A stretch of DNA of 40,530 bases from a phage: the sequence record PZ513997.1, one strand, 5' to 3'. The position numbers and the translations under genes are program-made. Position 1 is the stretch's first letter; every line of letters begins with the position of its first letter. Below, piece after piece: positions 3,085-13,902 of the stretch. A model generated the notes under the pieces. The model did not search any database. It was not told the origin of the DNA and saw only the letters and a list, made by a program, of their open reading frames with translations.

Positions 3085-3684
3085 ATGGCGGTAGTAAGAA
3101 AGCAGCGTAGAGTTGACGGTAAGAAGCAGAACTACTATTGGGATACTGAATTATGTATTGAGGTAGCAGCTCCTGTAAGGAAAAAGCACTATAGCATAGC
3201 TAATCCTATGCAAGGCTTGATAGGTTACGCTGTGATGCACGATAGCGAGCTTAAACAAGGTATAACAGACGCGTTTGCTAACTTTAACGGTAGTCAGATG
3301 CGTAACGGTTTAACTGGTATCAGTATACCTAAGTTGATTGAGTTAGCAGATACACAACCAGAGCTATATAGTACTGAGCATCCAGAGAGTACTAACCATG
3401 CTGCGTATGATGCAGCGCTTACTATGCTTCTAGTATTAGTGCGTGAACGTATCCCTGAATGGGAAGAGGCGTACAGATATGATATGCATAATAGTGGGTT
3501 AAATATCGTTGATTTAATGTGTGAACAAGGCTATGACACTGATAACTATACCGGTGCTATAGCTAATAGTCTTAATCAGGTTTGGAGTGAAGGTAAGCTC
3601 TTAGTAGGCACTGAGGCTAACAAGCATTGGCTTAAATCTCAGGGATTTTCTAAACTGCGTTCCCAGCGTAATAGATACATTTGA
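3085..3684 (+). CDS. hypothetical protein (weak resemblance to DnaQ-like 3'-5' exonuclease motifs)
   Basis: 199 aa ORF. 'YYWDTEL' resembles an Exo I D-x-E motif and 'NHAAYDAALTML' resembles an H-x-A-x-x-D motif, but spacing is atypical. Weak. Confidence 0.3.
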   Translation: MAVVRKQRRVDGKKQNYYWDTELCIEVAAPVRKKHYSIANPMQGLIGYAVMHDSELKQGITDAFANFNGSQMRNGLTGISIPKLIELADTQPELYSTEHPESTNHAAYDAALTMLLVLVRERIPEWEEAYRYDMHNSGLNIVDLMCEQGYDTDNYTGAIANSLNQVWSEGKLLVGTEANKHWLKSQGFSKLRSQRNRYI

Positions 3685-3861
3685 ATGGATAAAGCTAATT
3701 GGCAAGGTTATAAAACTCATGCAGATATGTTTGAGTTTCACAATAGAATTAACAACTACGCTTATCAGAGACTTAAAGCAGAGCAGGAGCTAGCAGAGCT
3801 TAGGCTACTAGCTTATAAGGAAGGGAAGGTATTCAACAATGAAGATTGGAAGAGATTTTAA
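3685..3861 (+). CDS. hypothetical small protein (58 aa)
   Basis: ATG-initiated ORF in the tiled frame, immediately after the preceding stop. No recognisable motif. Confidence 0.25.
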   Translation: MDKANWQGYKTHADMFEFHNRINNYAYQRLKAEQELAELRLLAYKEGKVFNNEDWKRF

Positions 3862-3864
3862 TTG

Positions 3865-3893
3865 TTGACTTACCTGTTTTGTAGAGGTATAGT
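3865..3893 (+). promoter_or_regulatory. sigma70-type host promoter candidate (early promoter)
   Basis: TTGACT (3865-3870), 17-nt spacer, TATAGT (3888-3893): a near-consensus -35/-10 pair with optimal spacing. Lies at the head of a non-coding-looking island, upstream of the small early ORFs. Confidence 0.45.
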
Positions 3894-4032
3894 TACATCA
3901 CACCACAACGAGGTAGGAAATAAAGAAGATGAACATTCAGAGCATGAACTTCCCGGTAATTATTAATTGTCTCTTAGCTTCTCATGTAATTCCCTCTGTA
4001 TAACCCGAGGACGCTACGTTACGCTCAGAACC

Positions 4033-4332: not shown

Positions 4333-4572
4333 ATGACTAACTTCAAAACTATGATTGCTGGTATCTTGGCAGCTGCTGCTGTTACCTTCTCTATTAAGGA
4401 TGCTCAGGCTGTTCCTAACAGCATTGAACTCTGCAACTGGGGCAAATGGGCGTACGCTCAGAACATCACGCTACAGCAGCTAGTAGACACGTTAAACAGC
4501 GTTGAAGCTATGCCGATTGATGATAGAATGCAGGTAGTAGAGTGCTTTGTAGAGGAGATGTCTAAATCATGA
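4333..4572 (+). CDS. small secreted or periplasmic early protein
   Basis: 79 aa. N-terminus 'MTNFKTMIAGILAAAAVTFSIKDAQA' has the n/h/c architecture of a Sec signal peptide with an AxA-like cleavage site. First substantial ORF after the promoter island. Confidence 0.45.
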   Translation: MTNFKTMIAGILAAAAVTFSIKDAQAVPNSIELCNWGKWAYAQNITLQQLVDTLNSVEAMPIDDRMQVVECFVEEMSKS

Positions 4573-7287: not shown

Positions 7288-8061
7288 ATGGCTGATGAAC
7301 TCTGGCTCAGGACGGCAAAGCGCTTGGCTGTTGGACAAACTGAACGCTTTAGGTGCTGCGGAAGAACAGCAGCAGCCGTAATAAGAAACGAGACTGATAA
7401 ATGGTCCTGCTCCTGCTATCGTTGCAAGAGCTATCACGTAGAACGTAAGCAGTATGCGCAATTAGCAGCACCTGAAGTACTGGGGCGCGAGTTACCCGCC
7501 CCTCAGGACCTGAAGCGCCTGCCTGAACTGGATGCAGGGCTTCAGCAGTTCCTTTACGGATTCTTAATATCAAAAGGTATCTGGCCTGACATGGCTGGAG
7601 ATGTTTATTACTCAGAACAATACAAGAGGTTAGTATGGAAATTATCAACGGTCAGTTACATAGCGCGAGCATTGCACGAGTATCAGCAACCGAAATGGGT
7701 CGTAATGGGGAAGCCGATGCAGTATGCAGCCGCGACGAATACGACGGGTTCATTGATAGTATTGACGGAGGATTACCTTTCGGCTTTCAAAGTTCAGCAA
7801 GTCACGGAGAGGTATTCATCTCTACAAGTTACGGCGGTAGCGTTGCTTGGGACAAGATTACCGCTGACTCTGAAGGCTGGGCTTATTAAGTTAGGTAAGC
7901 CTGTAGTGTGTATGCTTGACGATGATAAAGCTGGCTGGGATGGTACAGTCAGTGTAATAAAACAGCTTAAACCTTTCCTGCCAGTCTATGATAGGCATTT
8001 AGATGTAGACCCTAAAGCCGCTCATTGCGGTAAGATACTTGGAGCATTTGATGGACTTTAA
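7288..8061 (+). CDS. DNA primase (zinc-binding domain plus TOPRIM)
   Basis: 257 aa. Cys cluster 'CCGRTAAAVIRNETDKWSCSCYRC' (zinc ribbon). TOPRIM-like 'LTEDYLSAF' (conserved Glu) and 'CMLDDDKAGWDG' (DxD). Directly upstream of the helicase, as in phiKMV-like phages. Confidence 0.7.
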   Translation: MADELWLRTAKRLAVGQTERFRCCGRTAAAVIRNETDKWSCSCYRCKSYHVERKQYAQLAAPEVLGRELPAPQDLKRLPELDAGLQQFLYGFLISKGIWPDMAGDVYYSEQYKRLVWKLSTVSYIARALHEYQQPKWVVMGKPMQYAAATNTTGSLIVLTEDYLSAFKVQQVTERYSSLQVTAVALLGTRLPLTLKAGLIKLGKPVVCMLDDDKAGWDGTVSVIKQLKPFLPVYDRHLDVDPKAAHCGKILGAFDGL

Positions 8062-9336
8062 ATGGACTTTAATTTACTACGCGCTTTCTGTGAACGTAAG
8101 GTAATGGATAGGTTGTACGAACAGACGCCTAAGTCCTTGCTAGCACCTGATACGGTAGCGATGATTGGTTGGCTGCAACTGTACTTCGCAACTTATCCTG
8201 ACTCTAACGAAGTTAACTTTGAGATGATGAATACGCTCTTGGATATGCGAGGGACACATCTTCAGAAAGAGCAGCTGGATATTATGAAGCATATGCTTAA
8301 GACTATTCAGAACGTCCCTACTGAGCTTGTAGCAGGTACAGTTAAGACACTGAATGAGCTAGCTTACTCTGGCGAGATGGCTGCACTAGTGAGCAAGTAT
8401 CAGGCAGGTGATGAAATAGATTTCGTACAGGAAGCTAAAGCACTTGAGCGTAAGTACTCTGGTGTAGTAGCTGCTAATGATTCATTACTTAAATGGGAAG
8501 ATGGAGGTGTAGATGATATTCTCGCGGCTACTGATGAGTCTGGTGGTCTTAAGCTTACTGTGTTCAGTGAGTTGGCTAGAAACATTCGCGGCTTGCGGGG
8601 TGGTGATTGTGTCGCTGTGGCTGCTCCTGTTGACGCTGGTAAAACTTCTCTCCTTGCTGCTGCAGTAGTTAGCTTAGCTGAGCAGATGCATGAGCAGAAG
8701 GAGATTTACGCGGAGCGTCCTATACTGTGGCTGGTAAATGAATCATTAGCCAAGCGCACTGTTCCTCGTATCTATCAGGCAGCTACTGGGCTGACTCTTC
8801 AGCAGATTGTAGAGCAGCATAAAGAAGGTAAGTTCGCTGATAAGTATCTGAAGAAGGTTGGGACGTGGGATAAGATTCGCGTTAAGGATGCGCACAGTAT
8901 GAATCTGGGGCAGATTTCAACCTTACTGGAGGAAATGAAACCTGCTGTTCTAGTAGTAGATATGGTGAGTGGTATCAAGGGCGCGAATGCTGACTCAGAA
9001 CATCAGGCACTGGAGCGTACTTGGCAGGAACTGCGCATCTTAGGCTGTGAGCATGACTGTATTATCATTGGTAGTATGCAGCTATCGGCAGAAGGTTACG
9101 ATATGCTCTATCCCCCACTGACTGCTATGAAGCAATCACGCATCGGAGTACAGGGTGCATTAGACCTTTGTATTATGATGGGAAGATTGAATGTGAATGA
9201 TAAGCCGGACATGGCTAACATTCGCGGAATCTCTACCCCAAAATCAAAATTAACTAAGTCCGGCTGTCAGAGCTATGTTCAATTTCAGGTTGAATTTGAC
9301 GGAGGACGTTGTCAGTTTAAGGAGGGTACATTATGA
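8062..9336 (+). CDS. replicative DNA helicase (DnaB / T7 gp4 helicase-domain-like)
   Basis: 424 aa. Walker A 'APVDAGKTSLL'; Walker B-like 'VLVVDMVSG'. Confidence 0.8.
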   Translation: MDFNLLRAFCERKVMDRLYEQTPKSLLAPDTVAMIGWLQLYFATYPDSNEVNFEMMNTLLDMRGTHLQKEQLDIMKHMLKTIQNVPTELVAGTVKTLNELAYSGEMAALVSKYQAGDEIDFVQEAKALERKYSGVVAANDSLLKWEDGGVDDILAATDESGGLKLTVFSELARNIRGLRGGDCVAVAAPVDAGKTSLLAAAVVSLAEQMHEQKEIYAERPILWLVNESLAKRTVPRIYQAATGLTLQQIVEQHKEGKFADKYLKKVGTWDKIRVKDAHSMNLGQISTLLEEMKPAVLVVDMVSGIKGANADSEHQALERTWQELRILGCEHDCIIIGSMQLSAEGYDMLYPPLTAMKQSRIGVQGALDLCIMMGRLNVNDKPDMANIRGISTPKSKLTKSGCQSYVQFQVEFDGGRCQFKEGTL

Positions 9337-9762
9337 ATGAGCGAATGTATAGAACATAACCAGAAGGGCAACAAAGCTGGTTACGGCAATGGTTACTGGA
9401 ACGGTGAACAGGTTATGCTTCACCGCTTAGCCTATTGCTTTAACAAGCAAATACCTGTAAGTGAAATTAAAGGTAGTGTAGTGATGCACACCTGTGATAA
9501 CCCTCGCTGCATTAACCCAACGCACTTACGCTTGGGTACTCAGGATGAAAACATGAAAGATATGCAAGGCAAGGGAAGGATGAGCCAGGGCAGTAAGCAT
9601 TACATATCTAAACTTACTGAGGAGGATGTTAAGTACATACGTGAGAATTATATACCACGGCATCCAAAGTTTGGAGGTAAGGCGCTTGCTGCTAAGTTTG
9701 GTATAAATCCGGCATCCCTGTGTCAAATACGAAAAGGCCTACGCTGGAAATCCGTAAGCTAA
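9337..9762 (+). CDS. HNH homing endonuclease
   Basis: 141 aa. 'HRLAYCF...VMHTCDNPRCINPTHLRLGTQDENMKD' is an HNH_3-type motif (His, Asn, His with Cys zinc ligands). Free-standing between helicase and polymerase. Junction shows duplicated 'atgaatga'. Confidence 0.8.
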   Translation: MSECIEHNQKGNKAGYGNGYWNGEQVMLHRLAYCFNKQIPVSEIKGSVVMHTCDNPRCINPTHLRLGTQDENMKDMQGKGRMSQGSKHYISKLTEEDVKYIRENYIPRHPKFGGKALAAKFGINPASLCQIRKGLRWKSVS

Positions 9763-9915: not shown

Positions 9916-11130
9916 ATGAGCAGCATACTGATTTGGGATATTGAAACGCAGAACGTACCTTACTATGGCGGGGTTGCTACACCTTACTGCCCAGATAACT
10001 ACATTGTGGAATCAGGCTTCAGGATTGATAGAACTAATCCAGATGGTACGGTGACGTGCAGTGATGTAGGTAGCGTGCGTTACGAGTCGCGGGAGGAGTT
10101 CATCTCAGCACCTAGTAGTCAGTGGTTGCCTATTCAGGACGATACTTGGTTAATGGTAATGCATAACGCCGCATATGAGATTAGCTGGGCGTTGACGTTT
10201 GCTAGGGAAGAGTTTGAAGCATTCCTGAAACGGGGAGGGCGCGTATTCGATACAATGCAAGGCGAGTACATTGCCTCAGACTTCCAAAACCTTTACCCAT
10301 CATTAGATGAGACGGCTCCTAAGTACGGCGGCAGCCACAAGGTTGACGGCGTTAAACTGCTATGGCAGCAGGGCGTGTTAACAGCAGATATTGACCCTGT
10401 ACTGCTGCATGAGTATCTAACAGGGCCAGAAGGTGATATCGTAAACACAGCGTTATGCTTCTACGGGCAGTGTGCAGTGTTCGCTGAGCGTGGGCAGATG
10501 CCTATGGTCTGGGAAAGGATGGATAGTGTACTGGCCTTAGCCTACTGCGAGTTCAACGGTGTGTACGTAGACATGCCTACAGCCAGAGCTAACCAGAAGG
10601 AGCAGGAGGACGCTATAGCAGAGCTGAAGCAGACGCTGCAAGGCTTCTTACCTGAACTGCCTGAGGGATTTGAGTTCAACTGGAACAGCGGTTATCATAT
10701 GAGTGCGTTGGTGTACGGCGGTACGGTTAAGTACAAGTGCAAGGTCCCGTATGACCCGCCAAAGTTTGTAAAGTTCGATGCCTACCTGGCCGATGTTAAG
10801 GGTACTCAGCAATACATAGATGTTAATGATTGGCAAGATAGCTGGACGTACAGCCGTGAAGTGTTTAAGTCTGGACGTAATAAAGGTCTGCCCAAAGTTT
10901 ACAAGGTGGAAAGTTCAGAGCAGTCTATGAAGTGGGGTGAGCGCCTGTATAAGTTCGAAGGGCTTGTGCACATCCAAGACCTACCAGCAGTATTGCAAGA
11001 GAAGTACGCAGAGCGCGGAGAGTTCCGAGGTGCTCAGACATTGGCAGATGGTACACCTGTGTTCAGTACAGGGACTGATGCTATGAAAGAACTGGCTAAC
11101 TATTTTATTGGGATGGAAGAGAATGAGTAA
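9916..11130 (+). CDS. DNA polymerase, N-terminal part (3'-5' exonuclease domain)
   Basis: 404 aa. Exo I motif 'ILIWDIETQN'. Followed in frame by the polymerase-domain ORF. Confidence 0.8.
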   Translation: MSSILIWDIETQNVPYYGGVATPYCPDNYIVESGFRIDRTNPDGTVTCSDVGSVRYESREEFISAPSSQWLPIQDDTWLMVMHNAAYEISWALTFAREEFEAFLKRGGRVFDTMQGEYIASDFQNLYPSLDETAPKYGGSHKVDGVKLLWQQGVLTADIDPVLLHEYLTGPEGDIVNTALCFYGQCAVFAERGQMPMVWERMDSVLALAYCEFNGVYVDMPTARANQKEQEDAIAELKQTLQGFLPELPEGFEFNWNSGYHMSALVYGGTVKYKCKVPYDPPKFVKFDAYLADVKGTQQYIDVNDWQDSWTYSREVFKSGRNKGLPKVYKVESSEQSMKWGERLYKFEGLVHIQDLPAVLQEKYAERGEFRGAQTLADGTPVFSTGTDAMKELANYFIGMEENE

Positions 11131-12285
11131 ATGAGTAACAAGGCTTCGGAGTTCTTCAAGGCATACAGTGAGATGACCTTGCGTGAGAAAGATTTAGGCT
11201 TCTATGAGAAGAAGGAATTTAACAAGGACGGTAGCCTGCGTAAGACTACAGGTATGCTTCCGTATGTAATCCCTCAGAAGGAAGACGGCAGCGGCATCAT
11301 TCATCACAGATTGAATCACTGCTCAACCACGACCGGACGACTATCAGCATCTAACCCGAATATGCAGCAGTTGCCGCGTGAATCTAAGGTTAAGCAGATT
11401 CTGCGTAGTCGTTACGGTGAGCAAGGTATGATTGCTCAGTGTGACTACTCAGCTATGGAAGTTGTAATGGGCTGTGTAATAACAGGTGATAAGAAACTAC
11501 TATCCTTGCTTGAAGCTGGTACAGATATGCACTGCTATCGTTTAGCATTCCAAGAGGGTATGCCTTATGAAGAAGTCTACGAGCTTTGCCATAACCCGGA
11601 TGCACCTAACCATAAGGAATGGAAGAAGAAACGAACAGCAATCAAAACCTTCAGCTTCGCAGCGCAGTATGGAGCTTCCGCTAAAGGACTGGCGTTCGCC
11701 TCTGGTGCCAGCCTGAAGGACGCTGAGAAGTTCTTAGCTAACGAAGAAGCCCTGTTCCCTGAATCTATTAAGTACCGTGATGTAATTGCAGCAGAGGTAA
11801 ATCGTACAGCACTGTTAGAGCCTATGCGCCGCGAGCAATCAGATGATGGTAGCTGGCGTATCTATCGGGAAGGCTATTTTACTGCTCCTTGTGGTACTCG
11901 TTACCGCTTCCGTCAGAAACCTGTATGGCGTGAAGGTAAGCAGGTCATGGACTTTAAACCTACAGAGATGGCTAACTATCCATTTCAAGGTTCAGGTTCT
12001 CTGCTTATGCTTATTGCGATGGGTATGATTCTGCGCGCAGGATTAGCTACGGATTGGGGTAACGGTAGTTGGTGCTTGTTAGCAACTGTACATGACTCCG
12101 TATATTGTGACTGTAAAGATGAGTCAACGGCGAGGGAAGTAGGTCAATTAATTAAGAAATGTATGGAAGGTGCAAGAGATAGAATGCTGCAACTTTGGCC
12201 TAACTTCGGAATACTACAGGACGTTAAATTCCCTGCCGAGTGTGGTATTGGTAAATCATTTAAAGAGGAGCAGGTACTTGGCTAA
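11131..12285 (+). CDS. DNA polymerase, C-terminal part (family A polymerase domain)
   Basis: 384 aa. Motif A 'CDYSAMEVV', motif B 'RTAIKTFSFAAQYGAS', motif C 'VHDSVYCDC'. Confidence 0.85.
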   Translation: MSNKASEFFKAYSEMTLREKDLGFYEKKEFNKDGSLRKTTGMLPYVIPQKEDGSGIIHHRLNHCSTTTGRLSASNPNMQQLPRESKVKQILRSRYGEQGMIAQCDYSAMEVVMGCVITGDKKLLSLLEAGTDMHCYRLAFQEGMPYEEVYELCHNPDAPNHKEWKKKRTAIKTFSFAAQYGASAKGLAFASGASLKDAEKFLANEEALFPESIKYRDVIAAEVNRTALLEPMRREQSDDGSWRIYREGYFTAPCGTRYRFRQKPVWREGKQVMDFKPTEMANYPFQGSGSLLMLIAMGMILRAGLATDWGNGSWCLLATVHDSVYCDCKDESTAREVGQLIKKCMEGARDRMLQLWPNFGILQDVKFPAECGIGKSFKEEQVLG

Positions 12286-12329
12286 GTGGTATTGGTAAAT
12301 CATTTAAAGAGGAGCAGGTACTTGGCTAA
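12242..12329 (+). repeat. exact 44-bp tandem duplication at a CDS junction
   Basis: 'gtggtattggtaaatcatttaaagaggagcaggtacttggctaa' occurs at 12242-12285 (polymerase 3' end) and again at 12286-12329 (start of the HNH ORF, GTG start, read in a different codon phase). This is the pattern expected when two CDSs that overlap by 44 bp are concatenated. Confidence 0.7.
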
Positions 12330-12825
12330 AGTTACTAAACCTATACCGGAAGGCATACGGGAATTTTGGAGATATGATTCTGAGAGTGGGAAATTAATAT
12401 GCATACAAAACATAAAGCGCACTAAGTACAGTGAAGGCATAGTTGCAGCTAGTCTTACAACTACAGGTAATTATCTAAAGCTGAATTTTAATAAGGTAAG
12501 CTACCTTCAGCATCGGGTAGCATGGTTCCTTTACTATAATGAACAACCTCCTGAAGTTATAGACCACAAGGACGGTAACGGCCTTAACAACGCTATAAAC
12601 AACCTGCGTGCTGCAGATGATGGTTGTAACATGATGGACATTACTGTAACTGCTAAATCCACTACAGGTATTAAAGGTGTCATGCCTGTACGGGGAGGTA
12701 AGCTGTTCCGTGCCGAAGTATGTGTAGATGGTAAGCGCTACCAGAAGCACAGCAAGGACGTAGCTTTCTTAGAGCAGTGGGTACAGGCTAAGCGTAAAGA
12801 ATTACACGGAGAGTTTTATAAATAG
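12286..12825 (+). CDS. HNH homing endonuclease with AP2-like DNA-binding domain
   Basis: 179 aa. HNH motif 'VIDHKDGNGLNNAINNLRAA' and AP2-like 'GIKGVMPVRGGKLFRAEVCVDGKRYQKHSKDVAFLEQWVQAKRKELHG'. Its 5' end is the second copy of the 44-bp duplicate. Confidence 0.75.
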   Translation: MVLVNHLKRSRYLAKVTKPIPEGIREFWRYDSESGKLICIQNIKRTKYSEGIVAASLTTTGNYLKLNFNKVSYLQHRVAWFLYYNEQPPEVIDHKDGNGLNNAINNLRAADDGCNMMDITVTAKSTTGIKGVMPVRGGKLFRAEVCVDGKRYQKHSKDVAFLEQWVQAKRKELHGEFYK

Positions 12826-13380: not shown

Positions 13381-13902
13381 ATGAACTATTTAGATATCTG
13401 CGAGAAGTACAATGTAGGAAGCCTGCGCGACGCTAACCTGCGCGACGCTGACCTGTACGGCGCTAACCTGTACGGCGCTGACCTGCGCGACGCTAACCTG
13501 TACGGCGCTAACCTGTGCGGCGCTGACCTGCGCGACGCTAACCTGTACGGCGCTAACCTGTGCGGCGCTGACCTGCGCGGCGCTAACCTGCGCGGCGCTA
13601 ACCTGCGCGGCGCTAACCTGTACGGCGCTAACCTGCGCGGCGCTAACCTGCGCCTAACCTGCGCGGCGCTAACCTGTACGGCGCTAACCTGCGCGGCGCT
13701 AACCTGCGCGGCGCTAACCTGTGCGGCGCTAACCTGTGCGGCGCTAACCTGCGCGGCGCTAACCTGCGCGGCGCTAACCTGTACGGCGCTAACCTGCGCG
13801 ACGCTAACCTGCGCGACGCTGACCTGTGCGGCGCTGACCTGCGCGACGCTGACCTGTGCGGCGCTAACCTGCGCGGCGCTGACCTGCATGGGACTGACTT
13901 GA
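13381..13902 (+). CDS. pentapeptide-repeat protein (Qnr/MfpA-type fold), reading frame disrupted
   Basis: First 90 codons encode perfect A(N/D)LxG pentapeptides ('[30 protein letters not shown]...'). At 13651-13661 one 15-nt unit is 11 nt, shifting the called frame into 'LTCAALTC...'. The pentapeptide frame continues to a TAG at 13935-13937 ('...[19 protein letters not shown]'). Confidence 0.6.
13426..13886 (+). repeat. 15-bp tandem repeat array (about 31 units, one truncated to 11 bp)
   Basis: Units of form 'cgcgRcgctRacctg', head to tail with no spacers. This is the coding repeat of the pentapeptide-repeat gene. Truncated unit at 13651-13661. Confidence 0.85.

Follow-up and report, generated by a model that had tools for sequence, protein, structure and literature searches.

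The phage sequence record PZ513997.1 comprises 40,530 nucleotides (nt), the whole of which was analyzed and is hereinafter called the window. Between its positions 9,916 and 12,285, a family A DNA polymerase is encoded on the plus strand in two consecutive open reading frames (ORFs), both starting with ATG, namely, 9916..11130 (404 amino acids (aa), part 1) and 11131..12285 (384 aa, part 2). We conclude, with a probability of about 0.85, that both ORFs are real genes, each translated separately, and that their products jointly make up one replicative DNA polymerase. A sequence-only reading of the window had reported exactly this ORF pair, down to the coordinates, and had listed a genuine two-subunit enzyme, a frameshift or nonsense error, a recoding event, and the scar of an excised intron or intein as the possible explanations of the split. 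The first of these is strongly supported by the native geometry of the gene pair, its conservation, the selection that acts on both halves, and the position of the break in the polymerase fold.

Native geometry and conservation of the junction

The window is 99.6-100% identical to Escherichia phage vB_EcoP_PAS7 (OQ921331.1), a member of the Autographiviridae, subfamily Slopekvirinae, for which the genus Cepavirus has been proposed (PMC11522302); the polymerase is not mentioned in that genome paper. As the sequence-only reading had suspected, the window is a concatenation: it consists of the PAS7 coding sequences (CDSs) joined end to end. The GenBank CDSs 7368..8582 and 8575..9729 of PAS7 are identical to part 1 and part 2 of the window, respectively, so that the arrangement of the junction, which could not be read from the window, is now settled. 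In the native genome, the two parts overlap by 8 nt, ATGAGTAA, which harbor both the TAA stop codon of part 1 and the ATG start codon of part 2 (positions 4472-4479 of the native PAS7 sequence, L001; 11123..11130 in the window, plus strand), and part 2 is in the +1 frame. The same 8 nt appear twice in the window (11123-11130 is identical to 11131-11138). Thus, PAS7 contains two overlapping CDSs rather than one uninterrupted ORF.

The split is not confined to PAS7. The closest isolates, P64441 (83% aa identity) and ECO104 4-5-2 together with its copies (91%), are split at the same position, and a search of protein clusters covering 5.8 billion proteins yielded 54 metagenomic clusters that are 65-100% identical to part 1, are 378-416 aa long and end with ..(N/H)YFIG[IMV]E[DEQ][ND][DE]; many of these are located on contigs of 40-45 kb. 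Nothing intervenes between the two parts in PAS7, P64441, L008, L018 and L019/L020, all of which share the 8-nt overlap of the form ATGnnTAA/TGA despite the saturation of synonymous sites. In neighbor-joining trees, the split clade that includes PAS7 was monophyletic in 100 of 100 bootstrap replicates. Pairwise ratios of nonsynonymous to synonymous substitution rates (dN/dS) were 0.05-0.08 (part 1) and 0.02-0.10 (part 2), at dS values between 0.6 and 2.9, and the catalytic and exonuclease residues are retained across the homologs. Hence the gene pair shows the features of a gene in pieces: relatives have the gene in one stretch, and the two pieces are colinear with it, lack nothing, and are subject to purifying selection. 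A sequencing error or a pseudogene is excluded because the split is conserved across the clade and strong purifying selection acts on both halves, and the stop/start design in 54 independent clusters and in isolates from different laboratories similarly disposes of the frameshift or nonsense error among the four proposed explanations. More generally, it is extremely improbable that we are dealing with an artefact of sequencing, assembly or annotation, or else with a decaying gene. In favor of an artefact, a single indel of 1 or 4 nt would fuse the two frames, and the parts are indeed fused in one relative, L022; however, the identical architecture in isolates of different laboratories and in the 54 clusters, which come from many samples, the dN/dS values of 0.02-0.10 in both halves, the presence of whole genes between the halves in some relatives, and the viability of PAS7, which has been characterized as a phage (PMC11522302), all speak against it.

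These intervening genes are of three kinds. At the ECO104 4-5-2 junction, there is a 183-nt cassette that contains a 66-aa ORF (without a match in PHROG), is bounded by ATGAGTAA and ATGACTAA, and changes the frame offset to +2. In L017, a 43 kb Logan contig (ERR14794631) of a phage of the PAS7 clade, the parts are separated by a gene for a 242-aa N6/N4 DNA methyltransferase (PF01555) that occupies about 730 nt (L017 3639-4367). Finally, in L009, L010 and L011, more distant relatives that are 59-61% identical to part 1, a gene of about 440 nt encoding an HNH endonuclease of 153-155 aa (PF13392, phrog_99) is inserted at the same alignment columns; here part 1 extends 6-9 codons into the HNH gene in another frame, and the start codon of part 2 lies within the 3' end of the HNH gene. 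Part 2 always starts at its own initiation codon, which is ATG except for GTG in two of the HNH-bearing loci, and at the gene-bearing junctions it is preceded by a Shine-Dalgarno sequence of its own (AAGGA or GAGGT, the latter in L017). Judging from these arrangements, the junction appears to behave as an ordinary gene boundary that is able to take up additional genes.

This variability bears directly on the possibility that a programmed ribosomal frameshift (+1/-2) close to the part 1 terminus yields a single fused polymerase. The +1 frame, in which part 2 is read, is open in PAS7 and P64441 for 12 codons upstream of the ATG, and the nucleotides that encode the tail of part 1, TATTTTATTGG, are unusually conserved, being invariant in 7 genomes; both observations are compatible with such a mechanism. 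However, there is no recognizable slippery or stimulatory motif, part 2 has a start codon of its own throughout, and the frame relationship is not conserved, considering the +2 offset in ECO104. Moreover, a frameshift cannot join the halves in ECO104 (183 nt), L017 (about 730 nt) and L009-L011 (about 440 nt) because other coding sequence intervenes. With both the frame offset and the spacing varying among relatives and whole genes lodged between the halves, recoding, another of the explanations listed by the sequence-only reading, is a very unlikely cause of the split.

The conserved tail itself, YFIGMEENE (11101..11127, plus strand), is specific to the clade, as seen in the alignments and in the C-termini of the 54 clusters, and has no counterpart in single-ORF relatives; a purine-rich stretch upstream of the part 2 start falls within it. 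A variant of the tail, NYFIGIEDNE, resembles a motif, ..RNFIGIEMDD.., of the L017 methyltransferase. We considered kinship between the two sequences and rejected it: the likeness is taken to be due to chance because the nucleotide match (21 of 48) is no better than that of shuffled sequences (mean maximum 22.9).

Position of the break in the polymerase fold

The assignment of the two ORFs to family A, which the sequence-only reading had made, holds. Part 2 matches the Pfam family DNA_pol_A (PF00476) with E=3e-31 and 109 bits, well above the gathering cut-off of 34, and aligns with the Klentaq, Bst and Klenow polymerases across motifs A, B and C, with the characteristic patterns DYSxxE, RxxxKxxxFxxxYG and HDE/S all present. 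On the plus strand of the window, motif A is DYSAMEVV (11443-11466), motif B is RTAIKTFSFAAQYG (11632-11673), and motif C is TVHDSV (12085-12102); another motif, TGRLSASNPNMQQLP (11332..11376), is likewise uninterrupted. The alignments with structures from PDB show that this gene encodes thumb helix I, the palm and the fingers. Its N-terminus (11131..11202, plus strand) consists of four extra residues, MSNK, followed by ASEFFKAYSEMTLREKDLGF, which corresponds to thumb helix I and aligns with EIVENILHYRQLGKLQSTY of Bst Pol I as well as with the helix 285-302 of the modeled intact relative described below.

Part 1 has no match in Pfam, and its domain composition was deduced from an AlphaFold model of this part alone, built with an alignment of 41 sequences (mean predicted local distance difference test (pLDDT) 86.7, predicted template modeling score (pTM) 0.55). 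In the model, the N-terminal domain of about 230 residues adopts the RNase H-like fold of the DEDD 3'-5' exonucleases, and a Foldseek search with this domain retrieved RNase T, TREX2 and the exonuclease-like domain of Pol theta (E ~2e-5, probability 1.0). The three exonuclease motifs (9934..10437, plus strand) can be delineated as ExoI, WDIETQ (aa 7-12); an ExoII-like motif, HNAAYEISW (aa 83-91); and an ExoIII-like motif, YLTGPEGD (aa 167-174), with non-canonical spacing of the latter. Among the homologs, Y167 and D174 do not vary, and D8, E10, N84 and E88 hardly do.

The remainder of part 1 belongs to the polymerase domain. According to the secondary structure of the model and HMMER alignments with Klentaq and Bst Pol I, the segment 10531..11100 (plus strand) encodes long helices at aa ~195-242, which correspond to the region of thumb helix H, a further helix (aa 259-267), a beta-rich thumb-tip insertion of some 80 residues (aa 269-347), and helix H2 (TDAMKELAN, aa 387-395). 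Altogether, about 200 residues of the polymerase domain, comprising the long thumb helices, the tip insertion and helix H2, reside in part 1. The description of the two ORFs as an exonuclease part and a polymerase part is therefore only approximate: the exonuclease is indeed in part 1, but the break falls in the thumb rather than at the boundary of the two domains, and part 1 also holds the N-terminal thumb half. The tip insertion contains a polymorphism of its own, the presence or absence of 23 residues (window ~10777-10860, part 1 aa ~288-315), which separates the 404-aa and 381-aa forms of part 1. The long form found in PAS7 is closely similar to the polymerases of Klebsiella Drulisvirus (YDAYLADVNGTLQYIDVSDWQ...), and L009, which bears the HNH gene, also has the short form, VKVEVQDGVYK, so that this looks like another mosaic segment.

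Comparison with relatives that have retained the gene in one piece locates the break precisely. In a tblastn search, the 788-residue query was matched over its full length by one uninterrupted piece in each relative of about 61% identity or less; the single-ORF forms include those of Klebsiella Drulisvirus, Klebsiella phages VLC4 and Kp2, Shigella phage Buco, Enterobacter phage phiKDA1 and Vibrio phage HA1. Single-ORF relatives of 786 aa can be aligned with the two parts over their entire length, and the two parts jointly contain the full Pol I architecture. The sequence-only reading had raised the question of residues missing at the break; none are lost, and the split forms have, instead, about 12 extra residues, FIGMEENE (8) at the end of part 1 and MSNK (4) at the beginning of part 2. 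When the family profile is compared with the sequences in PDB, the break is placed in Bst Pol I at ...YSTSADVLEKLAP|YH|EIVENILHYRQLGKLQSTY, and the weaker alignment with Klentaq agrees; we take this position to be the junction between thumb helices H2 and I of the established Pol I structure. In an AlphaFold model of an intact relative, P0119 of Klebsiella phage myPSH1235 (pLDDT 88, pTM 0.77; template modeling scores of 0.58/0.67 to the large fragment of Bst Pol I), the helix TDAMEALA (273-280) is followed by the loop RRGF (281-284) and the helix EFCRLVNELGALEKDTGT (285-302). By this model, the break maps to the four-residue loop at the surface between helices H2 and I, a variable loop that, in the alignments, contains no conserved motif.

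These observations also bear on the idea that the halves are joined by splicing, through a group I intron, an intein or a split intein, an explanation with a practically negligible probability. Introns do occur in this gene family: ECO104 4-5-2 (L003, OR844702.1) contains, at ~3282-4009, a group I intron (Rfam Intron_gpI, 51 bits) with a gene for a 180-aa HNH protein, which sits within the part 2 motif TGRLSASNP|NMQQLP, such that the predicted exons restore the PAS7 sequence exactly (...SNPNMQQ...; the uninterrupted counterpart in the window is TGRLSASNPNMQQLP, 11332-11376), and many relatives are also interrupted at motif B. In PAS7, however, there is no RNA to splice because the spacing between the parts is -8 nt, and the Rfam scan detected no intron in L001 or at the split site of L009-L011. 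Furthermore, the 8 and 4 extra residues at the break fall far short of a split intein, whose N-intein and C-intein measure about 100 and about 35 aa, respectively, and the break is in a variable loop, whereas intron junctions sit in conserved motifs. As a splicing element, then, the scar envisaged by the sequence-only reading finds no support.

Other interruptions of the same gene deserve mention here. The intron lies in part 2, and the ECO104 polymerase is therefore in three ORF pieces. In a large class of Slopekvirinae (P0057-P0115, 580 aa; L009 6106-6742; L022 1742-2385), the ORF ends at motif B, ...IKxxSFA|AQYGA; next comes an ORF of about 140 aa in which an HNH-like signature, HH..N...CxxCH, can be recognized, and beyond it lies the remainder of the gene. 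There was no Rfam match at the gathering threshold, and this is probably another intron or endonuclease site. In Pseudomonas phage pphageT21 (L006) and Acinetobacter phage vB_Ab_1137_KEN_01 (L007), both phiKMV-like, the polymerase is interrupted elsewhere, into pieces of 470 + 296 aa and of 565 + 212 aa with an HNH gene between them, respectively. Fragmentation of the family A polymerase gene is thus widespread across the Autographiviridae.

Proposed assembly, apparent re-fusion and possible origins of the split polymerase

One member of the PAS7 clade, P0040 (L022 75-1742, a contig from Logan SRR10873863), reads through the junction (...DAMKELADYFISMGKDDHASGFFKAY...). Compared with the split alleles, L022 lacks 4 nt (GATGAC[TAAA]CTAGCC vs GATGAC----CATGCT), so that the parts are fused in frame, and the extra loop residues are retained as a linker. 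P0040 is nested within the split clade, and secondary fusion is the simplest reading because it was placed outside the split taxa in none of the 100 bootstrap replicates. That the halves can be re-fused via a short linker argues, as far as can be judged from sequence, that the end of part 1 and the beginning of part 2 adjoin in the assembled enzyme. The same 4-nt difference in the reverse direction means that a single indel could create the overlapping stop and start codons in one step.

We propose that the two chains associate non-covalently and thereby rebuild the normal Pol I architecture, probably via packing of the antiparallel thumb helices and through the interface between the exonuclease and the palm. 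Termination-reinitiation at ATGAGTAA would couple translation of part 2 to the stop codon of part 1 and so would favor the production of the two chains in similar amounts. Conceivably, no such assembly takes place, with part 2 acting as a polymerase on its own and part 1 serving independently as an exonuclease or an accessory protein. The LUZ24-like phages, in which an exonuclease part I of 171 aa and a polymerase part II of 546 aa are encoded about 2 kb apart (PMC3890496), lend this option some plausibility, as does the discordance between the histories of the two parts in PAS7 and L008 (4001-6287): part 1 has a dN of 0.19 (about 70% aa identity) and part 2 a dN of 0.03 (about 95%), which suggests recombination at or near the split. 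Nevertheless, we consider independent functioning of the two products unlikely: the cut through the thumb leaves part 2 without helices H to H2 and the tip that grips the DNA, the two genes invariably lie side by side in an unchanged order, the nested lineage tolerates re-fusion by a short linker, and part 1 modeled alone reaches a pTM of only 0.55.

Several considerations weigh against the two-gene, one-enzyme interpretation and temper our confidence in it. The case for assembly of two chains is built here from genes and single-chain models. In PAS7, part 2 is preceded by a weak Shine-Dalgarno-like sequence, and for this reason translational coupling is put forward only as an inference. The ExoII-like motif carries E where the canonical DEDD motif has D, and the predicted exonuclease activity of part 1 is therefore likely but unproven. 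Finally, the fusion in L022 could be an assembly error because it comes from a single Logan contig.

With respect to the origin of the two-gene polymerase, the split probably arose a single time, before the PAS7 (Cepavirus-like) clade diversified, and was undone again by re-fusion in one lineage. Two scenarios are plausible: either a minor indel shifted the frame in a loop that was already extended, or an HNH endonuclease invaded the gene and was later lost. The second scenario touches on the connection between the split and homing endonucleases that the sequence-only reading had considered. The neighborhood is indeed crowded with such genes: the flanking ORFs, 9337..9762 upstream (plus strand; PF13392, PF05551, phrog_6254) and 12286..12825 immediately downstream (plus strand; phrog_99), both encode free-standing HNH endonucleases. 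The connection itself has merit: L009-L011 hold an HNH gene at the exact site of the split, but there is none between the PAS7 halves, which overlap by 8 nt. The downstream endonuclease shares phrog_99 with the split-site HNH genes of L009-L011, to which it is only 27% identical. The junction endonucleases of L009 and L010 are 70% identical, more than their host polymerases are. The L009 polymerase is about 90% identical overall to the intact polymerase of phiKDA1, with the C-terminal 350 residues virtually the same, and identity collapses only around the HNH insertion, where the flanks match those of the otherwise distant L011. L009 and phiKDA1 form a before/after pair, from which it is evident that the gene can be split at exactly this loop by a mobile endonuclease with an accompanying co-converted tract. 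The HNH-bearing lineages P0070/P0072 are grouped as the sister to the PAS7 clade with a bootstrap value of only 54%, which favors neither scenario over the other.

A more tentative, and on balance doubtful, suggestion is that the cut in the thumb is a maintained module boundary, across which an exonuclease/thumb-tip module and a palm/fingers module are exchanged independently of each other between co-infecting phages, and at the same time a protected landing site for genes. There are hints in this direction, in particular, the discordant halves of PAS7 and L008, the apparently co-converted flanks around the HNH gene in L009 and L011, the three kinds of genes found at one junction, and the unusual nucleotide conservation of the part 1 tail. 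If the landing-site view is correct, a methyltransferase, an HNH endonuclease and a small ORF are housed inside an essential, highly expressed operon.

Two further observations concern the vicinity of the gene pair in the window. An exact 44-nt repeat (12242-12285 / 12286-12329), in which the last nucleotides of part 2 recur as the first ones of the following HNH gene, is an artefact of the concatenation of overlapping CDSs; the window start of this HNH gene is upstream of the GenBank start (9722), and therefore the gene calls of the window are not those of GenBank. At 13381-13902, a plus-strand ORF opens as a pentapeptide-repeat protein and half-way turns into LTCAA repeats; GenBank has a 'modular polyketide synthase' on the opposite strand, and P64441 has a pentapeptide-repeat protein on the plus strand. 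A frameshift or a mis-annotation in an array of 15-nt repeats is likely.

Implications and comparison with other split phage genes

Across a diverse clade, a replicative polymerase of the Pol I type tolerates a break of the chain between thumb helices H2 and I; this tolerance, along with the one case of re-fusion, therefore identifies a split point, tested by evolution, for the engineering of two-piece family A polymerases. The relatives of PAS7 also offer a view of the evolution of genes in pieces in which one and the same loop is empty, gene-bearing, endonuclease-bearing or re-fused. There is also a practical lesson: annotation pipelines that handle Slopekvirinae/Cepavirus, and phylogenies built on their core genes, should count the two CDSs labeled 'DNA-directed DNA polymerase' as one functional unit, and neither should be labeled a pseudogene or an error. 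Our literature search found no publication that describes a split DNA polymerase in PAS7 or other Slopekvirinae.

Family A polymerases in more than one piece have been described in other phages. In the LUZ24-like Pseudomonas phages, 'DNA polymerase part I' and 'part II' (PMC3890496) also represent a family A enzyme in two pieces, but the cut is at the boundary between the exonuclease and the polymerase (171 + 546 aa), and the genes are about 2 kb and some 10 ORFs apart, whereas in PAS7 the cut is in the thumb and the genes overlap. A split family A polymerase has been reported in an uncultured lineage of T7-like cyanophages unrelated to PAS7 (bioRxiv 10.1101/325100). Cyanophage P60, considered as another case, is no precedent since its current record contains a single polymerase CDS. 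According to the citation in PMC8351571, the DNA polymerase genes of T7-like phages contain group I introns with HNH genes (Bonocora & Shub 2004). These resemble the PAS7 case in the gene family and the HNH-rich neighborhood, with the ECO104 intron at TGRLSASNP|N as an example; however, such introns occupy conserved motifs and are spliced to give one polypeptide, unlike the PAS7 break, which has no intervening RNA and would yield two.

Functional split enzymes of phages include the Aeh1 NrdA (split by mobE), T4 gp39/gp60 (mobA) and gp43A/B (PMC2988022). Both the Aeh1 NrdA (Friedrich et al. 2007, PMC1851037) and the topoisomerase of T4, encoded by genes 39 and 60, are essential enzymes in two polypeptides that come together again, and homing endonucleases have been implicated in their splitting. 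The likeness extends to L009-L011, which hold an HNH gene exactly in the PAS7 split site; unlike these systems, PAS7 has no endonuclease between the halves, and a homing origin is one of two plausible histories. Another parallel is provided by the family B polymerase of Aeromonas phages 25 and 44RR, where the gp43A and gp43B products co-purify and are active (Petrov, Ratnayaka & Karam 2010, reviewed in PMC2988022). As with PAS7, a replicative enzyme that relatives encode in one piece is made from two neighboring cistrons, and a homing endonuclease (seg) gene or a short spacer lies between them, depending on the phage. The differences are in the polymerase family and the position of the cut, in the untranslated spacer of 44RR as opposed to the 8-nt overlap of PAS7, and in that the PAS7 pair is known from its genes. 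By analogy with these systems, the PAS7 split appears to be a further example of the genes-in-pieces already known in phages, and what is particular to it is the cut in the thumb, the overlapping cistrons without an endonuclease, the wide conservation, the variable inserts, and the natural re-fusion.

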